Made by a program: the position numbers and the translations under genes. A stretch of DNA of 64,000 nucleotides from an uncultured Oscillospiraceae bacterium. GTDB taxonomy: Bacteria; Bacillota; Clostridia; Saccharofermentanales; UBA5734. The first letter of the stretch is position 1. Each line of letters begins with the position of its first letter. A model generated the notes under the pieces. That model had not been told where the DNA came from. It made no database searches and saw nothing but the letters and a program-made list of their open reading frames with translations. The DNA lies in contig CAYVHB010000014.1 in NCBI GenBank assembly GCA_964450865.1, forward strand, positions 2,676 to 66,675, read 5' to 3'. Positions 979-21,721 of this stretch are shown piece by piece.

Positions 979-2112
979 TTGAATATTCAATGTACGCAGA
1001 AATTGCTGGATAAACTGAAGTGCCCGGCCACCTCACCGACTGCCCAGAATGATTTTTTTGACTGGCATGCCAGCATTCTTCTGGTTGACCGCCGCAACAC
1101 GGTTCTGTTGACCAACAATCTGTGCCATTATTCGCTGGTCCTTTATGGCTTGAAATCTGCCGACTTCAAGAAGCTGGCCAGCCTTTTCCAGCAGGCCCTG
1201 ACCGAAGTCCTGCTCGCTGAGGCCGTGGACCAGGAGACCATTGAGAAATATTTCCAGGCGGCTGGCTCGATCCAGTTTACCCGGACCAGCAATCGGTCCA
1301 TCCTGTCCCAAATGACCCAGACTGGTACGGAGCTGCGCTACGCCGCAGAAGATTTGGATCAGAACCAGATTGTGCAAACTGATTTCAGCCTGATGCGGGG
1401 ATCTCTCCTGCACAGCGTTGGCCGGCAATTCATTTGCCCGCGTGAGCAGCTGCTGTCCGCCCTGTCACGATTCAAGCAGGACGGCCAAACTGTCTTTACA
1501 TCAGAGGCGCTGGATGCAGGCATAACCAGGCCCACCGGGGAACGGGCCTTCATTCTGTCGGTGCAGCTTCCTTGTGGTGACCGCCTGATCTGGCGTAAAC
1601 TGGCTGTGCCGGCACGATGCACGTTTGGCCAATTCCATCGCATGATTCAGGTCAGTTTCAACTGGCAGAACCGGCATCTTTATCAATTTCAGGTTGTATC
1701 TGACGACGGCGAAACCGTGGCTGAGTCGAAAAGCTATGATCGGGACGAATTTGACGATTACGGGCAGTCATTCATGGACTATTTCTCGGAGCGGAAACGG
1801 TTGGCGGCGTTTTTGTCCCAATACAGAAACCTCCGCTACCTCTATGATTTCGGTGATGATTGGCTGCATCTCATTAAGCTGGATGAGACAGTTGATTCTT
1901 TTGCCGGACCGCTGCCGTGCTGCCTCGACGGTGAGGGGACGGCGCCGCCCGAAGATGTGGGCGGCGAAGACGGATACCTCGCGTTTCTCTCGATCGTTGA
2001 AAATGACGCGGATACCGAAGAAAAGCGCGAGCTGCTGGCGTGGGCCGAAAGCGTGAGATGGCAGGCCTTTGGTCTGCAGCGGATCAACGAGCGTTTGCAG
2101 TGGCTTTCGTAA
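979..2112 (+). CDS. Two-domain protein: N-terminal DUF6933-like domain plus C-terminal plasmid pRiA4b ORF-3-like domain
   Basis: N-term MNIQCTQKLLDKL...W(H)A. C-term IWRKLAVP...FHRMIQVSFNWQNRHLYQF...YLYDFGDDWLHLI...GEGTAPPEDVGG. RBS GGAGG upstream. Confidence 0.75.
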   Translation: MNIQCTQKLLDKLKCPATSPTAQNDFFDWHASILLVDRRNTVLLTNNLCHYSLVLYGLKSADFKKLASLFQQALTEVLLAEAVDQETIEKYFQAAGSIQFTRTSNRSILSQMTQTGTELRYAAEDLDQNQIVQTDFSLMRGSLLHSVGRQFICPREQLLSALSRFKQDGQTVFTSEALDAGITRPTGERAFILSVQLPCGDRLIWRKLAVPARCTFGQFHRMIQVSFNWQNRHLYQFQVVSDDGETVAESKSYDRDEFDDYGQSFMDYFSERKRLAAFLSQYRNLRYLYDFGDDWLHLIKLDETVDSFAGPLPCCLDGEGTAPPEDVGGEDGYLAFLSIVENDADTEEKRELLAWAESVRWQAFGLQRINERLQWLS

Positions 2113-5992: not shown

Positions 5993-6394
5993 ATGGAATT
6001 AGATAATAATAACCATTCAGTGTTCTTAATGTATTATCATCTCGTTTTAGTTATAAAGTATCGCCGCAAGGCTATCGATGATAAAATTTCTACTCGGCTA
6101 AAAGAGATTTTTGAAAACATTGCACCCAATTACAACATAGAACTTCAAAAGTGGAATCACGACAGAGACCATGTTCATATTCTATTCAAGGCACAACCAA
6201 ACAGTGAGTTATCCAAATTCATCAACGCCTATAAGAGTGCGTCTTCTCGCTTAATCAAGAAGGAATATCCTGTGATTAGAAAAGCATTGTGGAAAGAATA
6301 TTTCTGGTCGAGAAGCTTCTGTTTGCTAACAACAGGCGGTGCGCCGATTTCAGTAATCAAACGCTATATTGAAAGCCAAGGTGAACAACTATGA
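5993..6394 (+). CDS. tnpA: IS200/IS605 Y1 (HUH) transposase TnpA
   Basis: YHLVLVIKYRR...DHVHILF (HUH)...FWSRSFCLLTTGG...IKRYIESQG (catalytic Y). Confidence 0.95.
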   Translation: MELDNNNHSVFLMYYHLVLVIKYRRKAIDDKISTRLKEIFENIAPNYNIELQKWNHDRDHVHILFKAQPNSELSKFINAYKSASSRLIKKEYPVIRKALWKEYFWSRSFCLLTTGGAPISVIKRYIESQGEQL

Positions 6395-7518
6395 ATAAGG
6401 CTTACAAATATCGCATTTACCCCAATCCTGAGCAAGAAATACTTATCAATAGAACATTTGGTTGTGTACGTTTTGTCTACAATCGAATGCTTGCCAATCG
6501 CAAGGAAGTTTATGAACAAATCAAAGATGATAAGGATTTTCTAAAACAGCAAAAATATATGCTTCCTGCTGATTTCAAGAAGGAATTTACCTGGCTGAAA
6601 GAAGTGGACAGTTTGGCACTGTCCAATGCTCAACTCAATTTGCAAACAGCTTACAAGAAATTTTTTCGCGACAAATCGGTCGGGTTCCCAAAATTCAAAA
6701 GTAAGCATCGCGATAAGAAGTCATATACCACCAACAATCAAGGTGGTACGATTCGACTCATCGACGATAAAACTATCCGATTACCGAAACTGAAAGATGT
6801 GCGTATTAAGTTGCATCGTCAACTGCCAAAAAACGCAATCGTCAAGTCAGCGACAATCAGCAAAACACCTACTGGTAAGTATCAAATCTCCATTCTCGTT
6901 GAGTACGAAGCCGAGATTAAGTCTGTAGCCTCGACAGCGGAGACAGTTTTGGGGCTGGATTATTCGTCTAAGACATTGTTTGTCGATAGCCAAGCAAACA
7001 GTGCGAACTACCCAAGATTCTACCGGCAAGCCGAAGCCAGACTGAAAAAAGCGCAACGCAAACTATCCAAACGCCAGAAGGGCGGCAAAAACCGTGATAA
7101 ACAACGCCTTAAGGTTGCCAAACTCCATGAAAAAATCGCCAATCAGCGCAAAGACTTCTTGCACAAGCTGTCAAGGCAGATAGCCAACGCCTATTCAGCA
7201 GTCGCAATCGAAGACCTGAATATGCGCGGAATAGCTCGAAGTCTGAATCTGGCAAAATCCACTAATGACAATGGTTTCGGGATGCTCAAAACCTTTTTAG
7301 CGTACAAACTTGCTGAACAGGGTAAACCGCTTATCACAATCGATAAGTGGTTCCCTTCGAGTAAAATGTGTCGTCATTGCGCAAGCATCAATGCCGAATT
7401 GATTCTTAGCGACAGAGTCTGGACTTGTGAACACTGTGGTGCAGAATTAGACCGTGATTTGAACGCCGCAATCAATATCAAGAATGAGGGTTGTCGAATC
7501 TTAGGATTGGCATTCTAA
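6391..7518 (+). CDS. tnpB: TnpB RNA-guided endonuclease (RuvC + Zn ribbon)
   Basis: KAYKYRIYP, FGCVRFVYN, RuvC-I LGLDY, RuvC-II AIEDLN, CRHC...CEHC, RuvC-III DRDLNAAINI. Confidence 0.95.
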   Translation: MNKAYKYRIYPNPEQEILINRTFGCVRFVYNRMLANRKEVYEQIKDDKDFLKQQKYMLPADFKKEFTWLKEVDSLALSNAQLNLQTAYKKFFRDKSVGFPKFKSKHRDKKSYTTNNQGGTIRLIDDKTIRLPKLKDVRIKLHRQLPKNAIVKSATISKTPTGKYQISILVEYEAEIKSVASTAETVLGLDYSSKTLFVDSQANSANYPRFYRQAEARLKKAQRKLSKRQKGGKNRDKQRLKVAKLHEKIANQRKDFLHKLSRQIANAYSAVAIEDLNMRGIARSLNLAKSTNDNGFGMLKTFLAYKLAEQGKPLITIDKWFPSSKMCRHCASINAELILSDRVWTCEHCGAELDRDLNAAINIKNEGCRILGLAF

Positions 7519-7652
7519 TCTGGAATAAGAACCGTTGGGCGAACGGGGATAGCTTGGTAATTATATTGGCATTAGCTGGTACGTCCCAAGAAGCCCCTAC
7601 CTCTAAGCGTTAGCGTAGGTGGTGGGAGTATGTCACAGGAAGGGAATGATTA
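7519..7652 (+). ncRNA. Putative TnpB reRNA/omegaRNA 3' portion (right end plus flanking guide); 5' end probably lies inside tnpB
   Basis: Structured right-end sequence AACCGTTGGGCGAACGGGGATAGCTTGG...GAAGCCCC...TCAC. Inferred from the known biology of IS605 TnpB. Confidence 0.55.
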
Positions 7653-9913
7653 TGGCTGCCGGCCTGAAGAAGGAACTCATCCTTGATAACCTGGATTGTG
7701 CAAATTGTGCCGCGCGGATCGAAAAAGCAGTCCAGGACATTGATGGCGTCACGGATGCCGTGGTTGATTTCACAACCAGAAAGCTCAGCTTCGAGATTAC
7801 GCATCCCGCCAGGCAAGCGCCTATCATGCGCGCTGTTACCGCGGCCGCTTTGCAGATCGAATCGGGACTGGAGATTTCGGAATCCGCGGCAGCCAGGCCA
7901 AAACCGGAGCCGGACAATCTGATCAAGCTGATCGCGCCCGCGAAAATGATCCGGCTGGGCCTGGGCCTTGTTTTATTCGTCCTGGGCCTGGCCTTCCAGT
8001 TTACCGAATGGATCGAGCTGGCGATATTTCTTGCCAGTTATGTGCTGATTGGCGGCGATGTCCTGCTGCGGGCCGTCCGCAATATCATCAGGGGCCAGGT
8101 TTTTGATGAGAGCTTCCTGATGAGTATTGCCACGCTTGGCGCCTTTGCGATTCGTGAATTCCCCGAAGCAGTCGCAGTCATGCTGTTTTATGAAGTGGGT
8201 GAGCTTTTTGAAAAGCTGGCGGTTGGCCGTTCCCGGCGCTCGATCAGCGCCCTGCTGGATATCCGGCCCGATTATGCCAATCTGCAAACAGGCGACACGA
8301 TCCGGCAAGTCTCACCGGAGGCCGTGCAGATTGGCGACCGGATTGTCATCAAACCAGGCGAGAAGGTCCCGCTTGACGGGTTAATTGTCGAGGGGACCTC
8401 GCTGCTGGACCTGTCTTCGCTAACCGGTGAATCCGTTCCTCGTTACGTAAAGCCGGGCGACGCGGTCTATTCAGGTTCGATCAATAGAAACGGCTTATTT
8501 TTCGTTGAAGTAACCAGGGCCTATCAGGATTCAACCGTCGCGAAAATCCTTGACCTGGTGCAGCATGCCAGCAGTAAAAAAGCCCCGACTGAAAAGTTCA
8601 TCACGAGCTTTGCCCGTTACTATACGCCGGCGGTTGTCATCATTGCCCTGGCCCTCGCGGTCATTCCACCGCTGGTCTGGCCGGGCACAGCCTTCGCGGA
8701 CTGGCTTTACCGGGCGCTGATATTCCTGGTTGTTTCTTGCCCCTGCGCCCTGGTCATTTCGATTCCCCTCGGCTACTTCGGCGGCATCGGCGGCGCATCC
8801 AGGCATGGCATCCTGATCAAGGGCAGCAACTACCTCGAAGCATTGAAAAATGTCGATACGATCGTCTTTGACAAGACTGGCACGTTAACCCGGGGTGTTT
8901 TCAAGGTAACCCGGATTCACAGCCGGCTGGCTGCGGACCAGGATTTGCTGGAAGTAGCAGCTTATGCGGAAAGTTATTCCAATCACCCGATTGCCCAGTC
9001 GATCCTGCTGGCCTATGGGCGCGAGATCAGAAAGGAACGGATTTCCAGCTATGACGAGATCCCCGGCCATGGCATCCAGGCCGTTATTGACGGCAGAACG
9101 GTCCTGGCCGGCAGCAGCCGGTTCCTGCAATCTTCAGGTGTTACGGTCGACGATCCTGTTGCGGCGGCCGCCGATTCTGTAGAATCAGGGACGATCGTTC
9201 ATTTCGCCATTGACCAGCATCATGCCGGCTATATCGTTATTGCCGATGAAATCAAAGCCGACGCGGCCCGGGCGATCAGTGAGCTCAAGGCGCTCGGCAT
9301 CCGGAAGACCGTCATGCTGACCGGTGACAGCAGGCTGGCGGGCGAGCAGATCGCCGCGCGGCTGGGCCTGGATGAGGTCTACGCCGAGCTGCTGCCCGAC
9401 CAGAAAGTCCAGCAATTTGAGCAGCTGGAAAAGGCGAAAACAACCCGGGGCAAGCTGCTGTTTGTCGGCGATGGCATCAACGACTCACCGGTCCTGGCCC
9501 GTTCGGACGTTGGCATTGCGATGGGCGGCCTGGGCTCGGATGCGGCCATTGAGGCGGCCGATGTTGTGATCATGACCGACCAGCCGTCAAAAGTTGGCGA
9601 GGCGATTCGGCTTGCCCGCAAAACCAGCCGGATTGTCCGCCAGAATATCGCCCTGGCCCTCGTGGTGAAGGTTAGCGTATTATTAATGGGTGCCGGTGGT
9701 ATAGCGTCGATGTGGGAGGCGGTCTTCGCTGACATGGGTGTGGCCTTGATCGCAATTTTTAATGCGATGCGGATCCTGAACGGGCCAAAGAACGGACCAA
9801 AGAATAAATCGAAAAACGAATCAAAAAACGAATCGAAGAACGAATCGAAAAATGAATCGAAAAATGAATCGAAAAATGAATCGAAAAATGAATCGCAAAA
9901 ACGGGCCGGATAA
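7652..9913 (+). CDS. cadA: Cd/Zn/Pb-translocating P1B-type ATPase (CadA/ZntA)
   Basis: HMA LDCANC, LTGES, CPC, DKTGTLT, SNHP, GDGINDSP. RBS GGAAGGGA before ATG 7652 (alternative 7646). Confidence 0.92.
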   Translation: MAAGLKKELILDNLDCANCAARIEKAVQDIDGVTDAVVDFTTRKLSFEITHPARQAPIMRAVTAAALQIESGLEISESAAARPKPEPDNLIKLIAPAKMIRLGLGLVLFVLGLAFQFTEWIELAIFLASYVLIGGDVLLRAVRNIIRGQVFDESFLMSIATLGAFAIREFPEAVAVMLFYEVGELFEKLAVGRSRRSISALLDIRPDYANLQTGDTIRQVSPEAVQIGDRIVIKPGEKVPLDGLIVEGTSLLDLSSLTGESVPRYVKPGDAVYSGSINRNGLFFVEVTRAYQDSTVAKILDLVQHASSKKAPTEKFITSFARYYTPAVVIIALALAVIPPLVWPGTAFADWLYRALIFLVVSCPCALVISIPLGYFGGIGGASRHGILIKGSNYLEALKNVDTIVFDKTGTLTRGVFKVTRIHSRLAADQDLLEVAAYAESYSNHPIAQSILLAYGREIRKERISSYDEIPGHGIQAVIDGRTVLAGSSRFLQSSGVTVDDPVAAAADSVESGTIVHFAIDQHHAGYIVIADEIKADAARAISELKALGIRKTVMLTGDSRLAGEQIAARLGLDEVYAELLPDQKVQQFEQLEKAKTTRGKLLFVGDGINDSPVLARSDVGIAMGGLGSDAAIEAADVVIMTDQPSKVGEAIRLARKTSRIVRQNIALALVVKVSVLLMGAGGIASMWEAVFADMGVALIAIFNAMRILNGPKNGPKNKSKNESKNESKNESKNESKNESKNESKNESQKRAG

Positions 9914-10712: not shown

Positions 10713-10803
10713 TGGCGGAGAGAGTGGGATTTGAACCCACGGTAGACTCTCATCTACGCCGGTTTTCAAGACCGGTGCCATCAGCCAGCTCGACCATCTC
10801 TCC
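10713..10803 (-). tRNA. tRNA-Ser (anticodon UGA), CCA encoded
   Basis: Reverse complement GGAGAGATGGTCGAGCTGG...CCGGT-CTTGAAA-ACCGG, long variable arm, GGGTTCAAATCCC, TCTCTCC-G-CCA. Confidence 0.97.
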
Positions 10804-11034: not shown

Positions 11035-11337
11035 TTATTCGATGGTCATGAAGTCGGCAAAGCCGGTGACGTCAAAGATCTCCTTGATGGTTTCGCTGCA
11101 GCCGGTAATTTTCATGGTGGTACCGATGGCGTTGACCTTCTTCTGGGCGGAGAGCAGGACGCGCAGGCCGGAGCTGCTGATGTATTCCAGATCGGCCAGG
11201 GCAAAGACCAGGTGGAAGCGGTCCTGCTCGTAGACCTTTTTCAGTTCTGCTTCCAGTTCGGGTGAGGTAATGGTGTCCAGGCGTCCGGTCAGGGCGAACA
11301 TAATGACGTCGTTTTCCTGGGTTTTGTTAATTTTCAT
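11035..11337 (-). CDS. STAS-domain anti-sigma factor antagonist
   Basis: LTGRLDT..SPELE...LEYISSSGLRVLL...IFDVTGF, with the phosphoacceptor Ser motif intact. Confidence 0.92.
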   Translation of the reverse strand: MKINKTQENDVIMFALTGRLDTITSPELEAELKKVYEQDRFHLVFALADLEYISSSGLRVLLSAQKKVNAIGTTMKITGCSETIKEIFDVTGFADFMTIE

Positions 11338-11505: not shown

Positions 11506-12114
11506 TCAGAAGGCTTTCTTGACGATCATTTCCACACCGCCAGCCGTAACGGTGACCACGACGTCGTCAGCAAAGCGCTCGATGATTGATTTCTCCAGAC
11601 CGGTAGCCTCAAGGTCGGCCGCCCGCTCTTCAGCGGGTGCTTCCTGATTGTAAAGGGCCATGGACCAGGTCAGGGACGAACGCATCACCGGCATATAGGC
11701 TGCGCCCATGAAGCCATAGGCCATGGTCGAATAGAGCTCGGGCGTGTCAACCAGGGTGGGATCTGCCGCGAATAAACCGGCAAACAGATAGCTGATCTTG
11801 TTCTTGAGGCCTTTGGGCGGGGTGCTGCGCTTGGCCGACGAGACGGCGATGAAAGCCTCGCGGGCTGTCTCCGTCACGGAAGCCTTGACGGTTATGTGGA
11901 TATCAAATGCATTGTCAGTGCGTTCGAGCCAGAACAGTCCTTCGCTCTGCTTGAGAACATCCGTTGTCATCGCGATCGATTCTTCGGCCAGCAGGCGCAG
12001 GATATTGGTGTTCTTTGTATTAAGACCACAATAAACAGCGGCGCGTTCGACTTCGTCCAGGATATTGGCGATTACCTGCACATCCGCGCTGACAGGAAAG
12101 AGATCTGTTTTCAT
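11506..12114 (-). CDS. Hypothetical protein, degenerate RsbW/anti-sigma-like HATPase fold (inferred)
   Basis: LRLLAEESIAM resembles the N-box helix. C-term GLEKSIIERFADDVVVTVTAGGVEMIVKKAF resembles the RsbW C-terminus. Co-oriented with the STAS gene. Confidence 0.6.
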   Translation of the reverse strand: MKTDLFPVSADVQVIANILDEVERAAVYCGLNTKNTNILRLLAEESIAMTTDVLKQSEGLFWLERTDNAFDIHITVKASVTETAREAFIAVSSAKRSTPPKGLKNKISYLFAGLFAADPTLVDTPELYSTMAYGFMGAAYMPVMRSSLTWSMALYNQEAPAEERAADLEATGLEKSIIERFADDVVVTVTAGGVEMIVKKAF

Positions 12115-12357: not shown

Positions 12358-13212
12358 ATGGTGAAACTGCCCGGATTGACTTCCCTGGTGCTTGTACTGC
12401 TGATTGTTACCCTGGTCTTGCCGCTGGCCGCTTGTGGCGGCAATAAGGGACCGGTTGCACCGCTGGATGTCACCGATTTGCGCGGCCATCGCATCGGGGT
12501 CCTGATGGCCTGGAGCCCGGACTATATTCTTGAGGATTATGGCGGCATTGACCTGGTCCGCTTTGACGGTCTCAGTGATGCCCTGCTGGCCTTGAAGTAT
12601 CGGCGGATCGAGGCTTTTGCTATGGATACCATCGATGCCAAGTACCTGTGCAGCGTCCAGCCTGGTTACCAGATGCAGGAAACCCCCGTCGGGATGGACC
12701 GCTATGTCACCTTTGTCAATAATAACCGCACCGATCTCCTGGTGCAGTTCAATGAATTTGCCGCCGGATTCATGAATAGTGATGAATACCGTGACCTGCA
12801 TGAGCGGGTCATGAATGTCGATAACGGCGAGTTTGTCAACAATGATATCCCGGCCCATACCGAGGGGCCGCTGATCAACGTCGCCATTGACGCGGCCGCG
12901 ATGCCTTACACCTCCTATGACTTTGCATCGGACCGTTATATTGGCAGCGACGTCGAGGTGATCCAGATGTTTGCCTGGCAGTATGGTTACCGGCTAAATT
13001 TTATCGACAGTGATTATAATGGTTCGGTCATGAATCTGACGTCCGGCAAGGCCGACCTGTTTATCTGTGCCCTGTCGGAGGCTTATCGTTTTGAGGTGGA
13101 ATTGACCCATAAAGCGCTGGTCAGTGATCCATATTTTTCGACGTCGATCCTGCTCGTCGGGATGGGTGACCGCACGGCAATGAGCTTTGATAATCCGGAC
13201 CTCGGCTACTGA
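12358..13212 (+). CDS. Polar amino-acid ABC substrate-binding lipoprotein (SBP_bac_3), circularly permuted
   Basis: Lipobox LAAC. The GlnH C-half motifs (DLRGHRIGV, KYRRIEAFAMD) precede the N-half motifs (VAID...PY...GSDVEV...GKADL...SDPY). Confidence 0.85.
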   Translation: MVKLPGLTSLVLVLLIVTLVLPLAACGGNKGPVAPLDVTDLRGHRIGVLMAWSPDYILEDYGGIDLVRFDGLSDALLALKYRRIEAFAMDTIDAKYLCSVQPGYQMQETPVGMDRYVTFVNNNRTDLLVQFNEFAAGFMNSDEYRDLHERVMNVDNGEFVNNDIPAHTEGPLINVAIDAAAMPYTSYDFASDRYIGSDVEVIQMFAWQYGYRLNFIDSDYNGSVMNLTSGKADLFICALSEAYRFEVELTHKALVSDPYFSTSILLVGMGDRTAMSFDNPDLGY

Positions 13213-13290: not shown

Positions 13291-13989
13291 ATGGACTCGT
13301 TTTTCAAGTATCTGAATGACCTGTTGTATGCCAGCCTGATCTATGAAAATCGCTACCTGTTCTTGCTGAAAGGGCTGGGCAATACGCTGCTCCTGACGGT
13401 TTTTTCCTTCCTGCTCGGCACCTTGTTCGGCTGCCTGTTTACGCTGGGCAATCTGCGCGGCGGCAAACTCGTCCGCAAGCTGCTGCAGGTGCTGACGCAG
13501 TTCCTGGTGCGCATTCCCAGCCTGGTCCTGCTGATGGTTTTCTCCTATATTATTTTCGCCGAGGTCAACATGAGCGGCCTGATCCTGGCCATCCTGGCTT
13601 TTACGATGAAAACCGCGTCTTATATGAGCGATATTTTTACCTCGGCGATCCAGTCCCTTGATTCGGGCGAGGTCGAGGCGGCCCGTTCGCTGGGCTTCTC
13701 CAAGCTGAAGGCCTTTTTCTATATTACGTTGCCCCAGGCGGTGCAGGTGGCCCTGCCGGTGTACAAGAACCAGTTCATCACGACGCTGCAGGAGACTTCG
13801 ATTGTTGGTTTCCTGGCCATCCAGGACCTGACCCGGGCCAGCAATATCATCGCCAGCCGGACCCTGGATCCCTTTATTTCCCTGATCATTGTCTCGGTGG
13901 CCTACCTGACCATCGGCTGGGTGACGAATCTGCTGCTATCGCTCCTGGAACGCTCCCACCATATCAGTCCTGCGGAGGTTGCTGCATGA
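13291..13989 (+). CDS. Amino-acid ABC transporter permease (HisM/GlnP family)
   Basis: LLKGLGNTL, EAARSLG EAA loop, ITLPQA, LQETSIVGFLAIQDLTR. Confidence 0.92.
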   Translation: MDSFFKYLNDLLYASLIYENRYLFLLKGLGNTLLLTVFSFLLGTLFGCLFTLGNLRGGKLVRKLLQVLTQFLVRIPSLVLLMVFSYIIFAEVNMSGLILAILAFTMKTASYMSDIFTSAIQSLDSGEVEAARSLGFSKLKAFFYITLPQAVQVALPVYKNQFITTLQETSIVGFLAIQDLTRASNIIASRTLDPFISLIIVSVAYLTIGWVTNLLLSLLERSHHISPAEVAA

Positions 13990-15068
13990 TCCAGTTGAAG
14001 AATCTGGCCAAGTCGTTTGGTACTAATGTCATTTTCCAGAACGTGAATTATGAGATCAAGAAAGGCGACGCCGTGGTCATTATTGGCCCGTCCGGCTGTG
14101 GCAAGAGCACCATGCTGCGCTGTATCAATGGCCTGGAGAAGCCTACGGGCGGCGAGGTCTGGGTGAACAACCAGAACATCGCCGATCCGAAGGTGGCCAT
14201 TGACAAGATTCGCAGCAAGATGGGGATGGTTTACCAGTCCTTCAACTTGTTCAGCCACAAGAATGTCCTCGAGAACGTGATCGCCGCGCCCATGCTTGTC
14301 AATCGCCTGGGCCGCAAGGAAGCGATTGCCGAGGCCATGCAATATCTGCGGCTGGTCGGAATGGAGAACCGCGCGTTTCATATGCCCAACCAGCTGTCCG
14401 GCGGTCAGAAACAGCGGGTGGCGATTGCCCGTTGCCTGGCGATGCATCCGGAGGTCATTTTATTCGATGAGCCAACGTCCGCGCTCGATCCGACGATGGT
14501 CGACGAGGTGCTCGGCGTTATCCAGCGCCTGATCAAGGACAAGATGACCTGCGTGATTGTCACCCATGAGATGTCCTTTGCCCAGAAAGTAGCCACCCAG
14601 GTTATTTACCTGGATGACAGGGGCATCTACGAAACGGGCACGGCCGAGCAGATCTTTGCCCGGCCGCAGCGGGAGAAGACCCAGGCGTTCATTCACAAGC
14701 TGCGGGTCTTTGAGCGGACGATTACACCGGTCAATGCTGACCTGTACAGTTTCATGACGGAGGTTCGCTCCTATTGCGCCCAATATGGCTTTACCAATCG
14801 CCAGCTTGATACAGTCAACCTGATTTATGAGGAGCTGATTTATCCGCTGGTTGCGGATCTGGCACGGAATAAGGCTATTATCTTCCGTTTGCGCTGCAAT
14901 ACGGCCGGGGAGATGATCGAGGTAATATTGACCGATCCGCGGGCGGCCGGCGACTGGCTGACGGCCGAAGGGGTCGACGAGCTGGGCGTAAAAATTATCC
15001 GCAGCATGGCTAGGGAAATGGAATCGACGCTGAAAGACGGTGTGGCCGAGCTGCGGATGCTGCTGTAA
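13986..15068 (+). CDS. Amino-acid ABC ATPase (GlnQ-like) fused to a C-terminal RsbW-like domain
   Basis: GPSGCGKST, LSGGQKQR, ILFDEPTSALD, VTHEM. About 120 extra residues: VNLIYEELI...VILTD...DELGVKIIRSMA. Confidence 0.9.
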   Translation: MIQLKNLAKSFGTNVIFQNVNYEIKKGDAVVIIGPSGCGKSTMLRCINGLEKPTGGEVWVNNQNIADPKVAIDKIRSKMGMVYQSFNLFSHKNVLENVIAAPMLVNRLGRKEAIAEAMQYLRLVGMENRAFHMPNQLSGGQKQRVAIARCLAMHPEVILFDEPTSALDPTMVDEVLGVIQRLIKDKMTCVIVTHEMSFAQKVATQVIYLDDRGIYETGTAEQIFARPQREKTQAFIHKLRVFERTITPVNADLYSFMTEVRSYCAQYGFTNRQLDTVNLIYEELIYPLVADLARNKAIIFRLRCNTAGEMIEVILTDPRAAGDWLTAEGVDELGVKIIRSMAREMESTLKDGVAELRMLL

Positions 15069-15083: not shown

Positions 15084-17417
15084 GTGAAAAAAGTGAAAAC
15101 GCCGGCGAAATCAGATGTCCTGATTGTACGACTACTGTCCCGGACCGTATGCCTGGCCCTGGTCCTGGCCTTGCTGCTGGCCGCACCGCTGGCCCTCGGT
15201 GGCTGTGCCCTGCAGCCGGCGGCCAAAGTGACGCTGGGCAGTGTCTATGACATGAACGCTGACAATTATATTATTGGTGTGCCGCAGGGCGCGGCGTCGA
15301 TGGTGGCCGTGGAAGCAGCCTTTCCCAAGGCCAGGATCGAGTATTTCCAGAGCAACCACGACGGTTACCTGGCCGTTCGCTCAGGCAAGATCGACGCTTA
15401 TGCCTATGACAAGGATCAGATGACCTTTGCCGCCGCCAACCTCGGCGATGTGGAGCTGCTGGATGAGGTGATCCATTCCACCCCCGTGGTGGCGGGGATC
15501 AATCCCCAGCGGACTGATCTGGTGGATCCGGTCAATGCCTTTATTGCCCAGATCAAGGCTGATGGCACTTATGCTGACATGTTCGACCGCTGGGTGACGA
15601 AAGCGACCGGGGTATTGCCCAGCATCCCTGATCCGGCCAGTCCGGTCGGGACTTTGCGCGTCGGTACAGCCGGAACGGTTGAGCCTTTCAGCTACTATGA
15701 CAAGAATCAGCAGCTTTGCGGCTTTGATATTGAGCTGATCCGGCGCCTGGCCCTGTTCATGAATGTGCGTGTTGAGCTGACCGCCCTGGATTTCGGGCCG
15801 ATGCTGGCCGCCCTGGAGGCCGGCAAGCTTGACCTGGTTATTTCCAATCTGCACGATCAGCAGCAAGTCCGGGATATTGTCCTGCTGTCTGATCCGTATA
15901 ATGTCTCGCGGACGGTGATGATGGTCAAAAAGGGCCGCTTCCAGCTGGCCGCCGGCATTCGCAGCATTGCCCAGCTGGCCGGCAAGCAAGTCGGGGTGCT
16001 GACCGGCAACATGCTCGACCAGATCCTGGCCAAGAGTGTGCCATCGGCCGTGCCGGTTTATTTCAATACCTATCCGGACCAGATCACGGCGATCAAGACT
16101 GGCCGCATTGACGCGATGATCCTGGACACGCCGATTGCTGTCCTGTATGCCGCCAATTCCGAGGGCGTATCACTGGTCCAGGAAAAAATGCAGAGTGATG
16201 ACTATGCCCTGGCCCTGAAGCTGGAGAACCAGGCGCTGTATGCCAAAGTCGACGCCGTTGTCGCGGCCCTGAAGGCTGACGGCACGCTGGACCAGATGGC
16301 GAAAAAATGGCTGGAAGGGCCAGCGGAGCAGAAAGTGCTGCCAGACCTGCCCCTGTCCGGCGCGAATGGCACCTTGCGCTTTGGCACCAGTTCCCTGACG
16401 GAGCCGTTTGCGTATCTCAATATCCAGAACCAGATCATCGGCTTCGATGTCGAACTGGCGCGGCGGATTGCCAGTGAGCTGGGCATGAACCTGGAAATTG
16501 TCGACATGGATTTCGCGGCCCTGATCCCGGCCTTGCAGTCCGGCAAGGCCGACATGATTGGTTCCTGTATCACCGTTACCCCGGAACGGTCCAAAATGGT
16601 GCACTTTACCCCCAGTTACTACGCCGGCGGTATCTCGGCGATTGTGGCCGCCCCCTCTGCTGGCAATACCGGTAATGGTAACGGCCAGTCCGGCCCGGCT
16701 GGCTTGAGTTTTTACCAGCGCCTGATCAATAGCTTCAACCGGACTTTTGTGATCGAGTCGCGCTATAAGCTGATCCTGCAGGGTCTGTGGGTGACGGTCC
16801 TGATCTCGGTTATGGCCGCGATCATCGGTTCGATCCTTGGTTTCCTGCTCAGCCTGATGCGCCGCTCCCGCAACAAATGGGCTAGTATCCCGGCCCGGAT
16901 CTACATCAAGGCCATGCAAGGCACGCCGATTGTCGTCCTGCTGCTGATTCTGTATTACATTATTTTCGGGAAAGTCAACATCAGTGCCATTGTCGTGGCC
17001 ATTCTGGCTTTTGCCCTGAACCTGGCCGCCTATGCCGCGGAAATCATCCGTTCCGGGATCGAGGCGGTGGACCGGGGACAGATCGAGGCTGCCAGTGCCC
17101 TGGGCTTTACAAAACTCCAGGTTTTTACACGCATCACCTTTCCCCAGGCCGCCCGTTATATCCTGCCTGTTTTCAAGGGGGAATTGGTTACGACGATCAA
17201 GATGACTTCGGTGGTCGGGTATATAGCGATCCAGGACCTGACGAAAATGAGCGACATCATCCGCAGCCGGACCTATGAAGCGTTCTTCCCGCTGATTGCG
17301 ACCGCGCTGATCTATTTCCTGGTGGCCGCTGCGCTGACATCGCTGCTGACCCGCCTGGAGTTCCGGATTGATCCGAAACGGCGCAAGCGGGCCATCAAGG
17401 GGGTGAGCAGCCGATGA
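15084..17417 (+). CDS. Lipoprotein with two tandem permuted SBP_bac_3 domains fused to an amino-acid ABC permease
   Basis: LALGGC lipobox; two copies of KADGT...W followed by LRxGT...EPFxY...GFD(I/V)EL. C-terminal permease with EAASALG and ITFPQA. Confidence 0.9.
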   Translation: MKKVKTPAKSDVLIVRLLSRTVCLALVLALLLAAPLALGGCALQPAAKVTLGSVYDMNADNYIIGVPQGAASMVAVEAAFPKARIEYFQSNHDGYLAVRSGKIDAYAYDKDQMTFAAANLGDVELLDEVIHSTPVVAGINPQRTDLVDPVNAFIAQIKADGTYADMFDRWVTKATGVLPSIPDPASPVGTLRVGTAGTVEPFSYYDKNQQLCGFDIELIRRLALFMNVRVELTALDFGPMLAALEAGKLDLVISNLHDQQQVRDIVLLSDPYNVSRTVMMVKKGRFQLAAGIRSIAQLAGKQVGVLTGNMLDQILAKSVPSAVPVYFNTYPDQITAIKTGRIDAMILDTPIAVLYAANSEGVSLVQEKMQSDDYALALKLENQALYAKVDAVVAALKADGTLDQMAKKWLEGPAEQKVLPDLPLSGANGTLRFGTSSLTEPFAYLNIQNQIIGFDVELARRIASELGMNLEIVDMDFAALIPALQSGKADMIGSCITVTPERSKMVHFTPSYYAGGISAIVAAPSAGNTGNGNGQSGPAGLSFYQRLINSFNRTFVIESRYKLILQGLWVTVLISVMAAIIGSILGFLLSLMRRSRNKWASIPARIYIKAMQGTPIVVLLLILYYIIFGKVNISAIVVAILAFALNLAAYAAEIIRSGIEAVDRGQIEAASALGFTKLQVFTRITFPQAARYILPVFKGELVTTIKMTSVVGYIAIQDLTKMSDIIRSRTYEAFFPLIATALIYFLVAAALTSLLTRLEFRIDPKRRKRAIKGVSSR

Positions 17418-18580
17418 AGATCCAGGTATCCCATCTGGTCAAGCAGTTTGGTTCAAATGTTGTGCTCAAGGATGTGAATGTCGAGATCGGCCGTGGCGAG
17501 ATTGTCTCGATCATTGGGCCGTCGGGGACCGGCAAAAGCACGCTGTTGCGCTGTATCAATCTGCTTGAGACGCCCTCAGGCGGTTCGATCCAGATTGATG
17601 GCGTCGATCTCCAGGCGCGCGGGACCAATATCCATAAGCTGCGCCAGAAAATGGGCATGGTTTTCCAGTCGTTCAACCTCTTCGCCCATCTGATGGTGAT
17701 TGAGAATATCATGCTCGGCCCGCTTGATCTGCTGAAAATGCCACCACAGACAGCCTATAATGAGGCGATGCAGCTGCTGGGCCAGGTTGGCCTGATCGAC
17801 AAGGCCCTCGCCTATCCGGATGAGCTTTCCGGCGGCCAGAAGCAGCGGGTGGCCATCGCCCGGGCCCTGGCGATGCATCCGGAGATCATCCTGCTCGATG
17901 AGCCGACCAGCGCCCTGGATCCGACGATGATTGGCGAGGTTCTGGCCGTGCTGCGCAATCTGGCCCGGGCCGGCCTGGCCATGATCATCGTTACCCATGA
18001 AATGAAATTTGCGGCAGAAATATCAACACGGGTCCTGTACATGGACGAGGGAATTATCTACGAGGACGGACCGCCGGCCCAGATTTTCCAGCATCCGCAA
18101 CGGGAGAAAACCCGGGCTTTTGTTAAGCGGATCAAGAGCTTTACGACGGAGATCCGCTCGCGGACCTTTGACTTTTACGGTCTTGTGTCCCAGATCGAGG
18201 ACTTTGGCCGGCGCCAGATCCTGGAGCTGCACCAGATTCATGACATCCAGCTGGTCCTTGAGGAACTGGTTGTTTTGCAGCTGCTGCCGCACCAGACCGG
18301 GAGCGAGCCGTATGTCAAGATCAATGTCAGTCACGTGGAAAGCAGCGGCGATATTGAGATCTCGCTGAATTATGGCGGACCGGCCTGGAATCCGCTGGCG
18401 TCCATGACGACTGAGCCGGCCGCCAGCCCAGCCGCCGCGGAGCCGGCCGCCAGCCCAGCCGCTGCGGAGCCTGGCGACGACCTGTCGCTACGGCTTTTGC
18501 GGCATAAGATCAAGACAGCCAGCTATTCTTATGCTGAAGCCGACGGAATGAACACGCTGCTCATCCTGATCCGGGGCTGA
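17414..18580 (+). CDS. Second amino-acid ABC ATPase (GlnQ-like) fused to a C-terminal RsbW-like domain
   Basis: GPSGTGKST, LSGGQKQR, LLDEPTSALD. C-term DIQLVLEELV...ISLNYGGPAWNPL...SYSYAEADGMNTLLI. 27-bp duplication at 18413-18466 (EPAASPAAA x2). Confidence 0.9.
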   Translation: MKIQVSHLVKQFGSNVVLKDVNVEIGRGEIVSIIGPSGTGKSTLLRCINLLETPSGGSIQIDGVDLQARGTNIHKLRQKMGMVFQSFNLFAHLMVIENIMLGPLDLLKMPPQTAYNEAMQLLGQVGLIDKALAYPDELSGGQKQRVAIARALAMHPEIILLDEPTSALDPTMIGEVLAVLRNLARAGLAMIIVTHEMKFAAEISTRVLYMDEGIIYEDGPPAQIFQHPQREKTRAFVKRIKSFTTEIRSRTFDFYGLVSQIEDFGRRQILELHQIHDIQLVLEELVVLQLLPHQTGSEPYVKINVSHVESSGDIEISLNYGGPAWNPLASMTTEPAASPAAAEPAASPAAAEPGDDLSLRLLRHKIKTASYSYAEADGMNTLLILIRG

Positions 18581-19624: not shown

Positions 19625-19945
19625 ATGGGTATTTTTTATCAGGTGACAGATGGCCTGGTCACGATATTTCTCGGCGAACGCCTGGATATGGCCCAGTCCG
19701 CTGAATTTGAAGCTGAATTGGATACCTGCCTGCCCTTGGTTCGTCAGGGACTTTGCCTGGATTGCTCGCGTCTGGTATATTTGAGCAGTGCGGGCTTGCG
19801 GGTCATTTTGAAGGGAGCCCGGCTGATGAAGGCTGCCAGTCAGCCCTACCAGATGACGCAAGTGCAAGACGATGTCTATAAGGTTCTGAACCTGTCCGGA
19901 TTTACCCAGATCGTCAGGATCAGCCGGCAGACTCAAACCGATTGA
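19625..19945 (+). CDS. STAS-domain anti-sigma factor antagonist
   Basis: LGERLD...LDCSRLVYLSSAGLRVIL...VLNLSGF. Confidence 0.9.
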   Translation: MGIFYQVTDGLVTIFLGERLDMAQSAEFEAELDTCLPLVRQGLCLDCSRLVYLSSAGLRVILKGARLMKAASQPYQMTQVQDDVYKVLNLSGFTQIVRISRQTQTD

Positions 19946-20083
19946 CGGATGGTGCGGCTGTGGCTGAAGAGACCGATACAGACACCGCCGGATTAATGAT
20001 CAGGTATGGCCGGATCAATTTAATGATCAGGTTGTATCTATTATAACAGCGGTTCACAGCAGCGATCATGGGTGAGGGGCTTT

Positions 20084-21721
20084 ATGCTGATTAACGAAAG
20101 CTGGCAGCCGGTTGCGGCGACAGATGGCATCGAAATTTATCCATTCATCAGAAAACCCAATTTTTCCTGTTCCAATTCGTTTGTTTTATCGACGGATCAG
20201 TGGATCATTCTGATCGATCCGGGTGCCGATGCTGGCCAGATGAGTAAAATACGTCAGACTGTCAGCCAGGCCCTGGCGGCCCGGCCTCGTCCGGTCCTGG
20301 TCCTGCTGACCCATTGTCACGTCGACCACTGGGTGGCCGCTTTTGCTGATCCGCTTTTTCGCCAGCTGGGCGAGGTCAGAATCGCCGCCCATCAGCAGGG
20401 TGCGGCTTATATCATGGATAAAAACAAGGTCATGACCATGTCAGACCTGGCCGGCCTGCCGCTGCCGGACGCAATCGTTGATCTGCCATTGTTTGCCAGT
20501 CAGCCAGGTCCGCCCCATCGCCTGGCCCTGGCCATCGGCTCCCGGGATATTGCACTGATTGATCCCATGCCGGGACACAGCCCGGACAGTATATGTATCC
20601 AGATTGGCAACCTGCTTTTTGCCGGGGACTTCTTTTTCGCCCTTGATTATCTGATCGCCGGCCTCAATGGCTGGGATCGTGATGCCATGGGGCAATCCAT
20701 CGAGCGGATGCAGGAGCTGGCCCGGCAAGATCAGATCGGACTATTCTGTACCGGCCACGGCAATCCCTTTCCAGCCGCCGATGCCAGGCTGATCCTGCAA
20801 AAAATGCAGCGGCAGATAACCCGGATGCCGGTTTTACCCGAATTGAATATGCAGCATATCCGGACCTCGGCCGCCTATGCCGTGGAGATGATGAATGAGC
20901 TGCATGATACCATGGCGGTTATGACCGGGCGGCTGTATGCCCTGAGTTATTATCTGGAGATGCTCGGTGAAGAGGTGCGTTCAGCGAAATACACCGCACA
21001 GCTTGATACAGCCGCCCTGGATGATCTCGTGCAGACCTATCAGGAATTCGCCGAGCGTTACACCACTGGTGATCTGATCGATTTTCACCTGCTCAAAAAG
21101 GTTGGTCAGATCATCGCGAAAATGGAGCGTTTATTGTCAGGCCAGCAAGGGGAAAGCATCATCGATGCAAGGTTACTCCAGCGGCTCTCGTGGACATTTG
21201 GCGATTTTATCAAGGCAACCGGGGGTATGCCCCTGGAGGTTATCGGCGAGGATACCGATCTGGATAGCCTGGTGGCTGATCTGTTGCAATCACTGCAGAG
21301 AAAGGCCGATCCTGGGCAAATGATGGCCGCGCTGGACAGCGAGACACAGTTTGTGGATGGGCTGGTGAACCGGCTGGCTGACGCGACCCTATTCCGGAAA
21401 GTCAAGCTGGATTTTAAGGCGGCTGGCAGATTGCCCGCTGTCAACTTGCATCGGGCCCGGTTCCGCGATGCCCTGAGCGGCCTGCTCGAGGAAATCGCCG
21501 CGCTTGACACCCGCCGGATTGAGCTGCAAACCCGGATTGCCGACGGCACCCCGGCAGCAGTCTGGCTGACGGTGAGCAGCCCCGATGGTATGGATGAGGC
21601 CGCGCTCAATGCCCGGAAATGGCCGATGTATCAACGCAAATTTGCCTTGCAGGGCATCAGCCTGACCCTTGAGCAAGGGCAAAACGGCCAGGTCATACAC
21701 CTGGCCCTGCCAGTGAGCTGA
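20084..21721 (+). CDS. MBL-fold metallohydrolase fused to a degenerate histidine-kinase-like (HisKA/HATPase) region
   Basis: LIDPG, THCHVDH, PGHSPD, FAGD, GHG. Then NELHDTMAVMTG (H-box-like) and a HATPase-like C-terminus lacking N/G boxes. Alternative start GTG 20072. Confidence 0.75.
   Translation: MLINESWQPVAATDGIEIYPFIRKPNFSCSNSFVLSTDQWIILIDPGADAGQMSKIRQTVSQALAARPRPVLVLLTHCHVDHWVAAFADPLFRQLGEVRIAAHQQGAAYIMDKNKVMTMSDLAGLPLPDAIVDLPLFASQPGPPHRLALAIGSRDIALIDPMPGHSPDSICIQIGNLLFAGDFFFALDYLIAGLNGWDRDAMGQSIERMQELARQDQIGLFCTGHGNPFPAADARLILQKMQRQITRMPVLPELNMQHIRTSAAYAVEMMNELHDTMAVMTGRLYALSYYLEMLGEEVRSAKYTAQLDTAALDDLVQTYQEFAERYTTGDLIDFHLLKKVGQIIAKMERLLSGQQGESIIDARLLQRLSWTFGDFIKATGGMPLEVIGEDTDLDSLVADLLQSLQRKADPGQMMAALDSETQFVDGLVNRLADATLFRKVKLDFKAAGRLPAVNLHRARFRDALSGLLEEIAALDTRRIELQTRIADGTPAAVWLTVSSPDGMDEAALNARKWPMYQRKFALQGISLTLEQGQNGQVIHLALPVS

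Follow-up and report, generated by a model that had tools for sequence, protein, structure and literature searches.

Two adjacent amino acid transporters and the extension of ATPase 1

The window analysed here is a 64-kilobase (kb) stretch of contig CAYVHB010000014.1 from an uncultured Oscillospiraceae bacterium, a gut member of the Clostridia. Our subject is the ATPase of the first of two neighbouring ATP-binding cassette (ABC) transporters encoded on it (ATPase 1), which carries a C-terminal tail that, from sequence comparison and a predicted structure, is related to the anti-sigma-factor kinases RsbW and SpoIIAB. Features are on the forward strand unless stated otherwise. The operon of transporter 1 opens with a gene for a substrate-binding lipoprotein of 284 residues (12358..13212), in which SBP_bac_3 was matched over the C-terminal lobe only (residues 173–271, E 9e-10). 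This protein may belong to a divergent binding-protein subfamily; its relatives likewise show just weak SBP_bac_3 matches. It is followed by a single permease gene (13291..13989; 232 residues, BPD_transp_1 E 4e-21), implying a homodimeric membrane part for the transporter, and the end of this gene overlaps the start of the ATPase gene by 4 nucleotides. ATPase 1 itself is encoded by an uninterrupted open reading frame of 360 codons (13986..15068). The operon of transporter 2 follows, with a binding-domain/permease fusion of 777 residues (15084..17417), showing SBP_bac_3 in three stretches together with BPD_transp_1, and a second tail-bearing ATPase of 388 residues (ATPase 2; 17414..18580).

The nucleotide-binding domain of ATPase 1 occupies residues 1–238 (13986..14699). 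Pfam ABC_tran was matched over residues 18–165 (130 bits), and the NCBIfam profiles GlnQ, TcyN, EhuA, HisP and ArtP all aligned with residues 1–238 and then ended. From the translation it was possible to locate the Walker A motif GPSGCGKST (14085..14111), the signature LSGGQKQR (14394..14417), the Walker B motif ILFDEPTSALD (14457..14489) and the H-loop histidine (14565..14567); these elements, with the Q-loop and the catalytic Glu following Walker B, are all intact in ATPase 1 and invariant across its family. Comparison by Foldseek with ArtN (4yms_A) gave 52% identity and a template modelling (TM) score, TMt, of 0.96 over 238 columns. By these sequence and structure comparisons, residues 1–238 are a complete ATPase of a polar-amino-acid (HisP/GlnQ/ArtP-type) ABC importer. 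The original prediction had called the protein a GlnQ ATPase, a name that holds at the level of the family: the GlnQ profile (NF007027) scored 276 bits against an equivalog cut-off of 379, and TcyN, the next best match at 273 bits, was also under its own cut-off, with EhuA at 259 bits. As all NCBIfam scores fell below the equivalog cut-offs, "GlnQ" serves here as a family-level label and not as an ortholog call.

The ATPase domain is closed by PQREKTQAFIHK, encoded at 14664..14699, and the tail begins at L239 with nucleotide 14700. It comprises 122 residues (14700..15065; residues 239–360 of the full-length protein) and the stop codon, which brings the feature to 15068. The proposal that ATPase 1 ends in an RsbW-like domain placed directly after the ATPase end was borne out at the level of the gene, the reading frame being continuous and the strings quoted in its support (LYSFMTEVRSYC..YGF, VNLIYEELI, IEVILTD and DELGVKIIRSM) all lying within 14700..15065. 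A full-length model was obtained with a predicted local distance difference test (pLDDT) score of 89.6 and a predicted TM (pTM) score of 0.68. Assignment of secondary structure in this model by DSSP shows the last helix of the ATPase domain (230–236) leading after about 3 residues into the first strand of the tail, b1 (240–246), with essentially no linker between them.

Fold of the tail and state of its ATP site

When searched alone, the tail of ATPase 1 matched Pfam HATPase_c_2 (PF13581) over positions 9–125 of the 127 in the profile with an E value of 0.018 and a score of 15.5 bits, below the gathering score of 27.4 bits. Among 52 homologous tails, 18 matched this family (best E 6.6e-7) and 2 matched HATPase_c (PF02518), with no other Pfam family recurring in more than two of them. 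A hidden Markov model (HMM) of the tail family was then searched against a library of 1.84 billion representative proteins, giving 667 proteins at E<=1e-3, most of which were N-terminally truncated ABC-plus-tail fragments from short contigs. The matches also included proteins that bridge the tails to canonical kinases. One of 134 residues (P0258) was matched end to end by the tail profile (E 1e-8), scores 65.9 bits against HATPase_c_2 and has canonical motifs, namely EETLSN (N box), SDNGKKF (G1) and GGLGIFL (G2); a further protein (P0235) was matched at E 2e-9 and scores 46.8 bits. Canonical HATPase_c_2 relatives also match many fused tails pairwise by phmmer, with E values of 1e-5 to 1e-8. 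Many tails and canonical relatives have a segment FKDN....N.LE in common, the latter reading FKDNGIPFNPLE, which is the G1-region counterpart in the canonical relative from a metagenome locus described below (L023). On account of this common segment the tails appear to have arisen from such kinases, the central lid having been deleted and the glycine loop lost.

Sequence searches of the PDB with the tail of ATPase 1 and with the 52-sequence tail profile returned noise only (EgtC, vicilin), and when the tail profile was aligned by hhalign with one built from two sequences, RsbW and SpoIIAB, the alignment was weak (2.4% probability) but in the expected register. As a template profile of two sequences is too thin for this method, reliance was placed on Pfam, on the bridging sequences and on Foldseek.

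The tail was modelled from its alignment using AlphaFold2 without templates (pLDDT 92.6, pTM 0.86). In tail numbering, the elements assigned by DSSP are b1 (2–8), a1 (15–27), a2 (33–52), b2 (60–66), b3 (73–79), a3 (94–103), b4 (106–112) and b5 (115–121), with a loop or lid between b3 and a3; strand b1 reads RVFERTI and is encoded at 14703..14723. The predicted model therefore has the b1-a1-a2-b2-b3-lid-a3-b4-b5 order of the Bergerat sandwich. The 20 best Foldseek matches to this model in the PDB were all RsbW, SpoIIAB, UsfX or Rv1364c chains (E 1.8e-6 to 2e-3, probability 1.00, TM 0.62–0.73), with the best RsbW match at E 1.8e-6 and TM 0.70–0.73, and the catalytic domains of histidine kinases ranked below these 20 at a TM of approximately 0.45–0.5. 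Tails of the TOBE, NIL/ACT or CBS type, which were considered as candidates, were not among the Foldseek matches. Structural similarity to the GHKL/RsbW fold, on which the original prediction had staked its claim, was thus found in the predicted model, and the RsbW pattern that it had read from the sequence is supported by these chains together with the sequences bridging to HATPase_c_2. Taking the sequence and model evidence together, the tail of ATPase 1 is homologous to the RsbW/SpoIIAB anti-sigma-factor serine kinases (HATPase_c_2, Bergerat fold), and it is best described as a degenerate offshoot of HATPase_c_2, having the fold of the family and lacking most of its sequence hallmarks.

To place the motifs of the ATP site, the weak hhalign register was used, with the RsbW sequence checked against 6m36. 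It sets E45 on the Glu of the N box (EELI against SEAxTN) and D79 on the Asp of the G1 box (ILTD against the G1 strand and its Asp), in agreement with the register first proposed for the N-box helix and the G1 strand; the G2 register (DELG against GGLG) was mapped by eye and is consistent with that of hhalign. Column statistics were taken over 122 tails. The remnant of the N box on helix a2 is EELIYP (14829..14846), where E45 (E283 of the full-length protein) is kept in all 122 tails and the Asn of the Glu-x-x-x-Asn pattern is replaced by Pro49, an Asn being present at this position in 30 of the 122. After b3 the tail reads D79-P-R-A-A-G-D (DPRAAGD, 14934..14954) in place of DxGxG, so that the Asp, which is retained in 49 of the 122 tails, is present and the glycines of the motif are gone. 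The remnant of the G2 box (G-x-G-L-G) is DELG at the N-terminus of helix a3 (D93-E94-L-G96; 14976..14987). Here D93 stands in place of the first G2 glycine in 120 of the 122 tails, and the segment has at most one glycine in all of them. The lid between the G1 Asp and G2 has 13 residues in 117 of the 122 tails, including that of ATPase 1, as against 24–28 in RsbW, SpoIIAB and P0258.

The presence of Asp-Glu where the phosphate-binding G2 glycines would be argues strongly, as far as sequence can tell, against canonical ATP binding. Because it has lost the Asn of the N box, the glycines of G1 and G2 and half of the lid, the tail is very probably a pseudokinase that has given up canonical binding and use of ATP and has been kept for its surfaces. 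This agrees with the earlier view of the domain as likely non-catalytic. That view had rested on loss of the N-box Asn and the G1 glycines, both of which were found to be missing; the list was correct as far as it went and incomplete, as the G1 Asp (D79) is retained, the G2 box has also been lost and the lid has been halved.

Conservation of the tail and the genes around it

A search with full-length ATPase 1 yielded more than 100 proteins of 358–376 residues with 48–78% identity, all with the extra ~120 residues. They derive from metagenome-assembled genomes of Bacillota and Clostridia, from Candidatus Formimonas warabiya, Bariatricus, Erysipelotrichaceae and others, and all are labelled just "amino acid ABC transporter ATP-binding protein". 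In the alignment of 52 tails E45 is invariant, and D14, Y16, Y29 and D93 (D252, Y254, Y267 and D331 of the full-length protein) are at least 90% conserved. The tail changes more quickly than the ATPase domain, median identity to ATPase 1 among relatives being 26% in the former and 62% in the latter. Relative to an ortholog of 78% identity, the tail has a ratio of nonsynonymous to synonymous substitution rates (dN/dS) of 0.16 and the ATPase domain one of 0.09, at a dS of approximately 1.2–1.3 that is near saturation. The fusion of ABC ATPase and tail is thus conserved in hundreds of proteins of Clostridia and Bacillota, and purifying selection acts on it. With the tail of ATPase 1 alone as query, a word-indexed search gave no homologues, the tail diverging too fast for such a search, which succeeded with the full-length query. 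A locus search using a subgroup tail alignment found 5 metagenome loci. Single-chain fusions ending in the tail were also encountered, of the form permease-ABC-tail (P0126) and binding protein-permease-ABC-tail (P0251). A repetitive protein of 4551 residues without an ABC domain (P0135) matches positions 62–115 of the tail profile about 21 times at a spacing of ~190 residues; the match may be spurious and due to a repeat, or the b-b-a-b half of the fold may serve an unrelated purpose in this protein.

The second ATPase of the window is built in the same way. Its nucleotide-binding domain (17414..18130) matches ABC_tran with 130.6 bits and the TcyN and GlnQ profiles over residues 3–240, and its tail of 149 residues and a stop codon (18131..18580) is matched by the tail-family HMM at E 1.6e-15. 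Direct BLASTP comparison of the tails of ATPase 1 and ATPase 2 was not significant, and their homology is shown by the family HMM; P0258 matches the tail of ATPase 2 pairwise in phmmer at E 2.7e-6. The lid loop of this tail has an insertion with an in-frame tandem repeat of 27 nucleotides encoding EPAASPAAA (18413..18471; 2.2 copies, 96% matches), which suggests that the loop tolerates variation in length. In every related locus examined, as in transporter 1 of the window, the operon unit of an SBP_bac_3 (family-3) binding protein, a single BPD_transp_1 permease and an ABC-plus-tail protein is conserved. The contig of the closest relative (L018) has three consecutive transporters, with ATPases of 373, 359 and 377 residues, all bearing the tail.

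The twin operons are flanked by two STAS genes. The first (11035..11337, reverse strand; 100 residues) matches Pfam STAS with 69 bits and has the phospho-Ser motif SSSGL; the second (19625..19945; 106 residues) matches STAS_2 with 36–37 bits and lies just downstream of the second ABC operon. No canonical RsbW-type protein was found by phmmer with three canonical RsbW-type queries among the six-frame open reading frames of the window, and no SpoIIE phosphatase was detected anywhere in it. Directly upstream of the first STAS gene is a reading frame of 202 residues with no family match (11506..12114, reverse strand), the pair being divergent from the first ABC operon. By eye its ends resemble RsbW (a LLAEESIAM helix and, C-terminally, VVVTVTAGGVEMIVKK) around a long insert. 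It was tried as a degenerate RsbW by BLASTP, the family HMM, Pfam, a PDB search and comparison with canonical relatives, all of which were non-significant, and the resemblance is an impression by eye only. The second STAS gene is followed by a gene for a protein of 549 residues (20072..21721) with an N-terminal metallo-beta-lactamase fold; its C-terminal half of ~300 residues gave no HATPase-like match.

Genes of this kind occur beside some of the related ATPases. In one clade of three loci (L006, L007 and L008), two STAS genes and a HAMP-SpoIIE phosphatase gene are found beside the ABC-plus-tail gene. In L007, with which L006 and L008 are syntenic, two nearly identical STAS genes and the phosphatase gene (1412..1708, 6832..7128 and 7121..9022) flank the ABC-plus-tail gene, which lies between genes for a purine nucleoside phosphorylase and an adenine deaminase and has no adjacent binding-protein gene, with an SDF symporter and an HD-CE protein encoded upstream. 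Ahead of the three-transporter array of L018 lies a true HATPase_c_2 gene (28.8 bits), present as a fragment at the start of the locus. A cluster in metagenome data (L023, 94..4987; Logan SRR27710309) encodes a STAS protein, a HATPase_c_2 protein with canonical motifs (135 residues), a MatE protein (256 residues), a protein of 441 residues made up of a MatE fragment and two tandem tail-like degenerate domains (P0199), and a SpoIIE phosphatase. It may be that this locus holds a MATE exporter with RsbW-like pseudokinase domains inside a partner-switching cluster, the MATE gene having been split by a frameshift; a homologue search with P0199 found only P0199 itself. The STAS proteins of the window and of these relatives keep a phosphorylatable Ser. 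Partner-switching genes were present within 4–10 kb in only 3 of 13 independent ABC-plus-tail loci, a weak enrichment given that such genes are common in Clostridia, so this neighbourhood is not a defining feature of the family.

Elsewhere in the window, upstream of the transporters, a heavy-metal P-type ATPase (7619..9913; HMA, E1-E2_ATPase and Hydrolase domains) ends in a (KNES)n tail encoded by about 8 copies of a 12-nucleotide tandem repeat (9778..9903). An IS605-family OrfB/TnpB-like gene (6391..7518), with HTH_OrfB_IS605, OrfB_IS605 and Cas12f1-like TNB domains, coincides with a dip in G+C content to 0.44 in 6001–8000, the value being ~0.55 elsewhere. The only tRNA gene in the window is a tRNA-Ser with anticodon TGA (10713..10803, reverse strand).

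Possible role of the tail and comparison with known systems

Given the sequence, the predicted model and the analogy with other importers, we consider with moderate confidence that the tail is a dimerising regulatory pseudokinase module of the ABC importer, lying beneath the ATPase dimer. RsbW forms homodimers through b1, in a cross beta-sheet, and through a1 (PMC7340262), and dimeric C-terminal domains regulate the ATPase domains in MetNI, as discussed in PMC7367683. Both b1 (residues 2–8) and a1 (15–27) of the RsbW-type dimer interface are present in the model of the tail. As there is one permease gene and one ATPase gene, the transporter would be two-fold symmetric with two tails, and since the b1-a1 element has been kept, these would most likely pair through it under the ATPase dimer. 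In MalK, MetN and ModC, the C-terminal domains pair below the two ATPase domains and govern how these close. By analogy, the paired tails would sit in the same position, tether both ATPase domains and relay an input from the cytoplasm by which closure of the dimer, and hence transport, would be held back or allowed.

A number of points weigh against this reading. Dimerisation of the tail, its placement under the ATPase dimer and its regulatory effect are all inferred, and the full-length monomer model, with a pTM of 0.68, does not orient the tail against the ATPase domain with confidence. No conserved partner gene lies beside the operon in 10 of the 13 independent loci (4–10 kb examined). In addition, 25% of the family keep the N-box Asn and 40% the G1 Asp, and there may be residual nucleotide or adenine binding in some members. 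The near-invariant D14 and D93, at the N-termini of a1 and a3, may for their part be helix caps rather than ligand residues.

As to the input received by such paired tails, a protein partner is ranked first, with a STAS-type protein as the obvious candidate, and is at best a tentative suggestion; a small ligand bound in a remodelled acidic pocket is ranked second and is improbable. Should a STAS protein be the partner, the dead RsbW-like tails would act as the receptor for a single-domain STAS protein whose state of phosphorylation depends on a kinase and a PP2C phosphatase with genes elsewhere, the unphosphorylated form docking and switching import on or off. The products of the STAS genes at 11035..11337 and 19625..19945 would then dock on both ATPase tails, phosphorylation of STAS would directly switch amino acid import, and the same logic would hold for MATE exporters with tail-like domains such as that of L023, all of which we consider rather doubtful. 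RsbW-type domains are not known to have partners other than STAS proteins and sigma factors, the STAS genes flank the twin operons with neither beside a canonical RsbW gene, and all the STAS proteins concerned keep the phosphorylatable Ser. The STAS and HAMP-SpoIIE genes of L006/L007/L008, the true HATPase_c_2 gene ahead of the L018 array and the MATE protein with two tail-like domains within the STAS/HATPase_c_2/SpoIIE cluster of L023 are in keeping with such a scheme, as is the regulation of an ABC ATPase by the STAS protein MlaB (PMC7367683). Partner-switching genes are, however, near just the three loci in 13, and the tails have only half of the lid, which in SpoIIAB contributes to the surface in contact with STAS. 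The a1 arginine through which SpoIIAB binds SpoIIAA and sigma-F (R20; R19 in RsbW) is also matched in the tails by a hydrophobic residue at position 19 (L, M, C or V). That very lack of a conserved neighbouring partner gene would fit a self-contained sensor for trans-inhibition, in which the putative former ATP pocket (E44, E45, D93, E94) would bind a cytoplasmic metabolite, for example the imported, possibly basic, amino acid, and lock the ATPase dimer open. The well-studied ligand-sensing tails of type I importer ATPases all act in this manner (methionine on MetN, molybdate on ModC), and the acidic residues lining the pocket are the most conserved positions of the tail, although these may be structural helix caps and no degenerate HATPase_c_2 domain is known to bind a ligand; we consider such a sensor unlikely.

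It is far less probable that the tail is a functional nucleotide-binding or kinase domain, phosphorylating a partner or sensing the ATP/ADP ratio. The invariant N-box Glu, the G1 Asp in ATPase 1 and the N-box Asn kept by a quarter of the family would allow for this, but nearly all members have Asp-Glu in place of the phosphate-binding G2 loop, the lid has 13 residues instead of 24–28, the Mg-coordinating N-box Asn is Pro in the tail of ATPase 1, and this tail scores 15.5 bits against a HATPase_c_2 threshold of 27.4. A chance resemblance, or a decaying remnant without function, might be read from the sub-threshold Pfam match of the single sequence and the empty PDB sequence searches. This is effectively refuted by conservation of length and fold in more than 100 homologues with a dN/dS of 0.16, by the bridging sequences to HATPase_c_2 at E 1e-8, by a Foldseek probability of 1.00 for 20 RsbW-type chains, and by the occurrence of the tail on both paralogues of the window and on all three ATPases in the array of the closest relative. 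Of these readings, that of a dimerising pseudokinase module is the best supported.

A large and unannotated group of polar-amino-acid importers in gut and environmental Clostridia and Bacillota has recruited what is very probably a pseudokinase derived from RsbW/SpoIIAB. The tail would illustrate clearly how, in nature, a GHKL kinase can become a module without catalytic activity, and annotators would gain a domain that can be named on several hundred proteins. It also raises the possibility of partner-switching signalling acting directly on nutrient uptake; docking of STAS proteins on the tails, if true, would make this a partner-switching pathway with a transporter, and not a sigma factor, as its output. 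The literature was searched for ABC importers bearing HATPase_c_2 or GHKL domains and for partner-switching modules that act on transporters in this way, and no relevant report was found.

In comparison with RsbW, SpoIIAB and UsfX (PDB 6m36/6m37, 1th8/1tid/1l0o and 8ih8/8jzt), the tail is alike in fold, order of elements, motif register, the invariant N-box Glu and a size of ~120–140 residues, as well as in the N-terminal b1-a1 element that sets this subfamily apart from histidine-kinase catalytic domains. Those proteins are free-standing, whereas the tail forms the C-terminal part of an ABC ATPase. It has also lost the N-box Asn, the G1 glycines, the G2 box and half of the lid, scores under the Pfam threshold, does not conserve the key a1 arginine, and is associated neither with a sigma factor nor with an obligatory STAS neighbour. 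The closest sequence relatives are the stand-alone clostridial HATPase_c_2 kinases (P0258 in L021, the 135-residue gene product in L023 and the L018 fragment), which share with the tails the FKDN....N.LE segment and a VVEE helix; these, unlike the tails, have retained the Asn of the N box, DNG and GGLG as well as a lid of 24 residues, and are encoded by separate genes beside STAS and SpoIIE genes. MlaF-MlaB (PMC7367683) is similar in that a component of anti-sigma partner-switching has been recruited to regulate an ABC ATPase. In that system, which has no RsbW-like domain, STAS is bound directly to the ATPase domain, whereas here it is the RsbW-like half that is fused to the ATPase and STAS has a candidate role only.

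Foldseek comparison of the full-length model returned the tail-less ArtN, ArtP, TTHA1159 and HisP over 236–249 columns, and the closest solved relatives (4yms, 2olj, 1b0u) end at ~240–260 residues. MalK, MetN, CysA and PotA superpose on the model through the ATPase domain only, with alignments of more than ~320 columns giving a root-mean-square deviation of 7–11 Å. From these comparisons no solved ABC ATPase has an RsbW-like tail, and to our knowledge the polar-amino-acid family (HisP, GlnQ, ArtP) is regarded as being without C-terminal regulatory tails. A few types of C-terminal regulatory domain (TOBE, NIL/ACT and CBS) are known in ABC importers and account for the shut-off of uptake from the cytoplasmic side. 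Like the tails of MalK, CysA, PotA, FbpC and ModC (TOBE-like), MetN (NIL/C2) and OpuAA (CBS), that of ATPase 1 comes directly after the ATPase domain, is of similar size and would be present in two copies per transporter, and by analogy it would be expected to dimerise under the ATPase dimer and gate its closure. Those domains have a beta-barrel, ACT-like or CBS fold, while the tail described here is predicted to be an unrelated alpha/beta Bergerat sandwich and would widen the range of folds known among the regulatory domains of transporters. On this sequence and model evidence, an ABC importer with a C-terminal regulatory domain is of a known kind, and the RsbW-like type of domain would be new to it.

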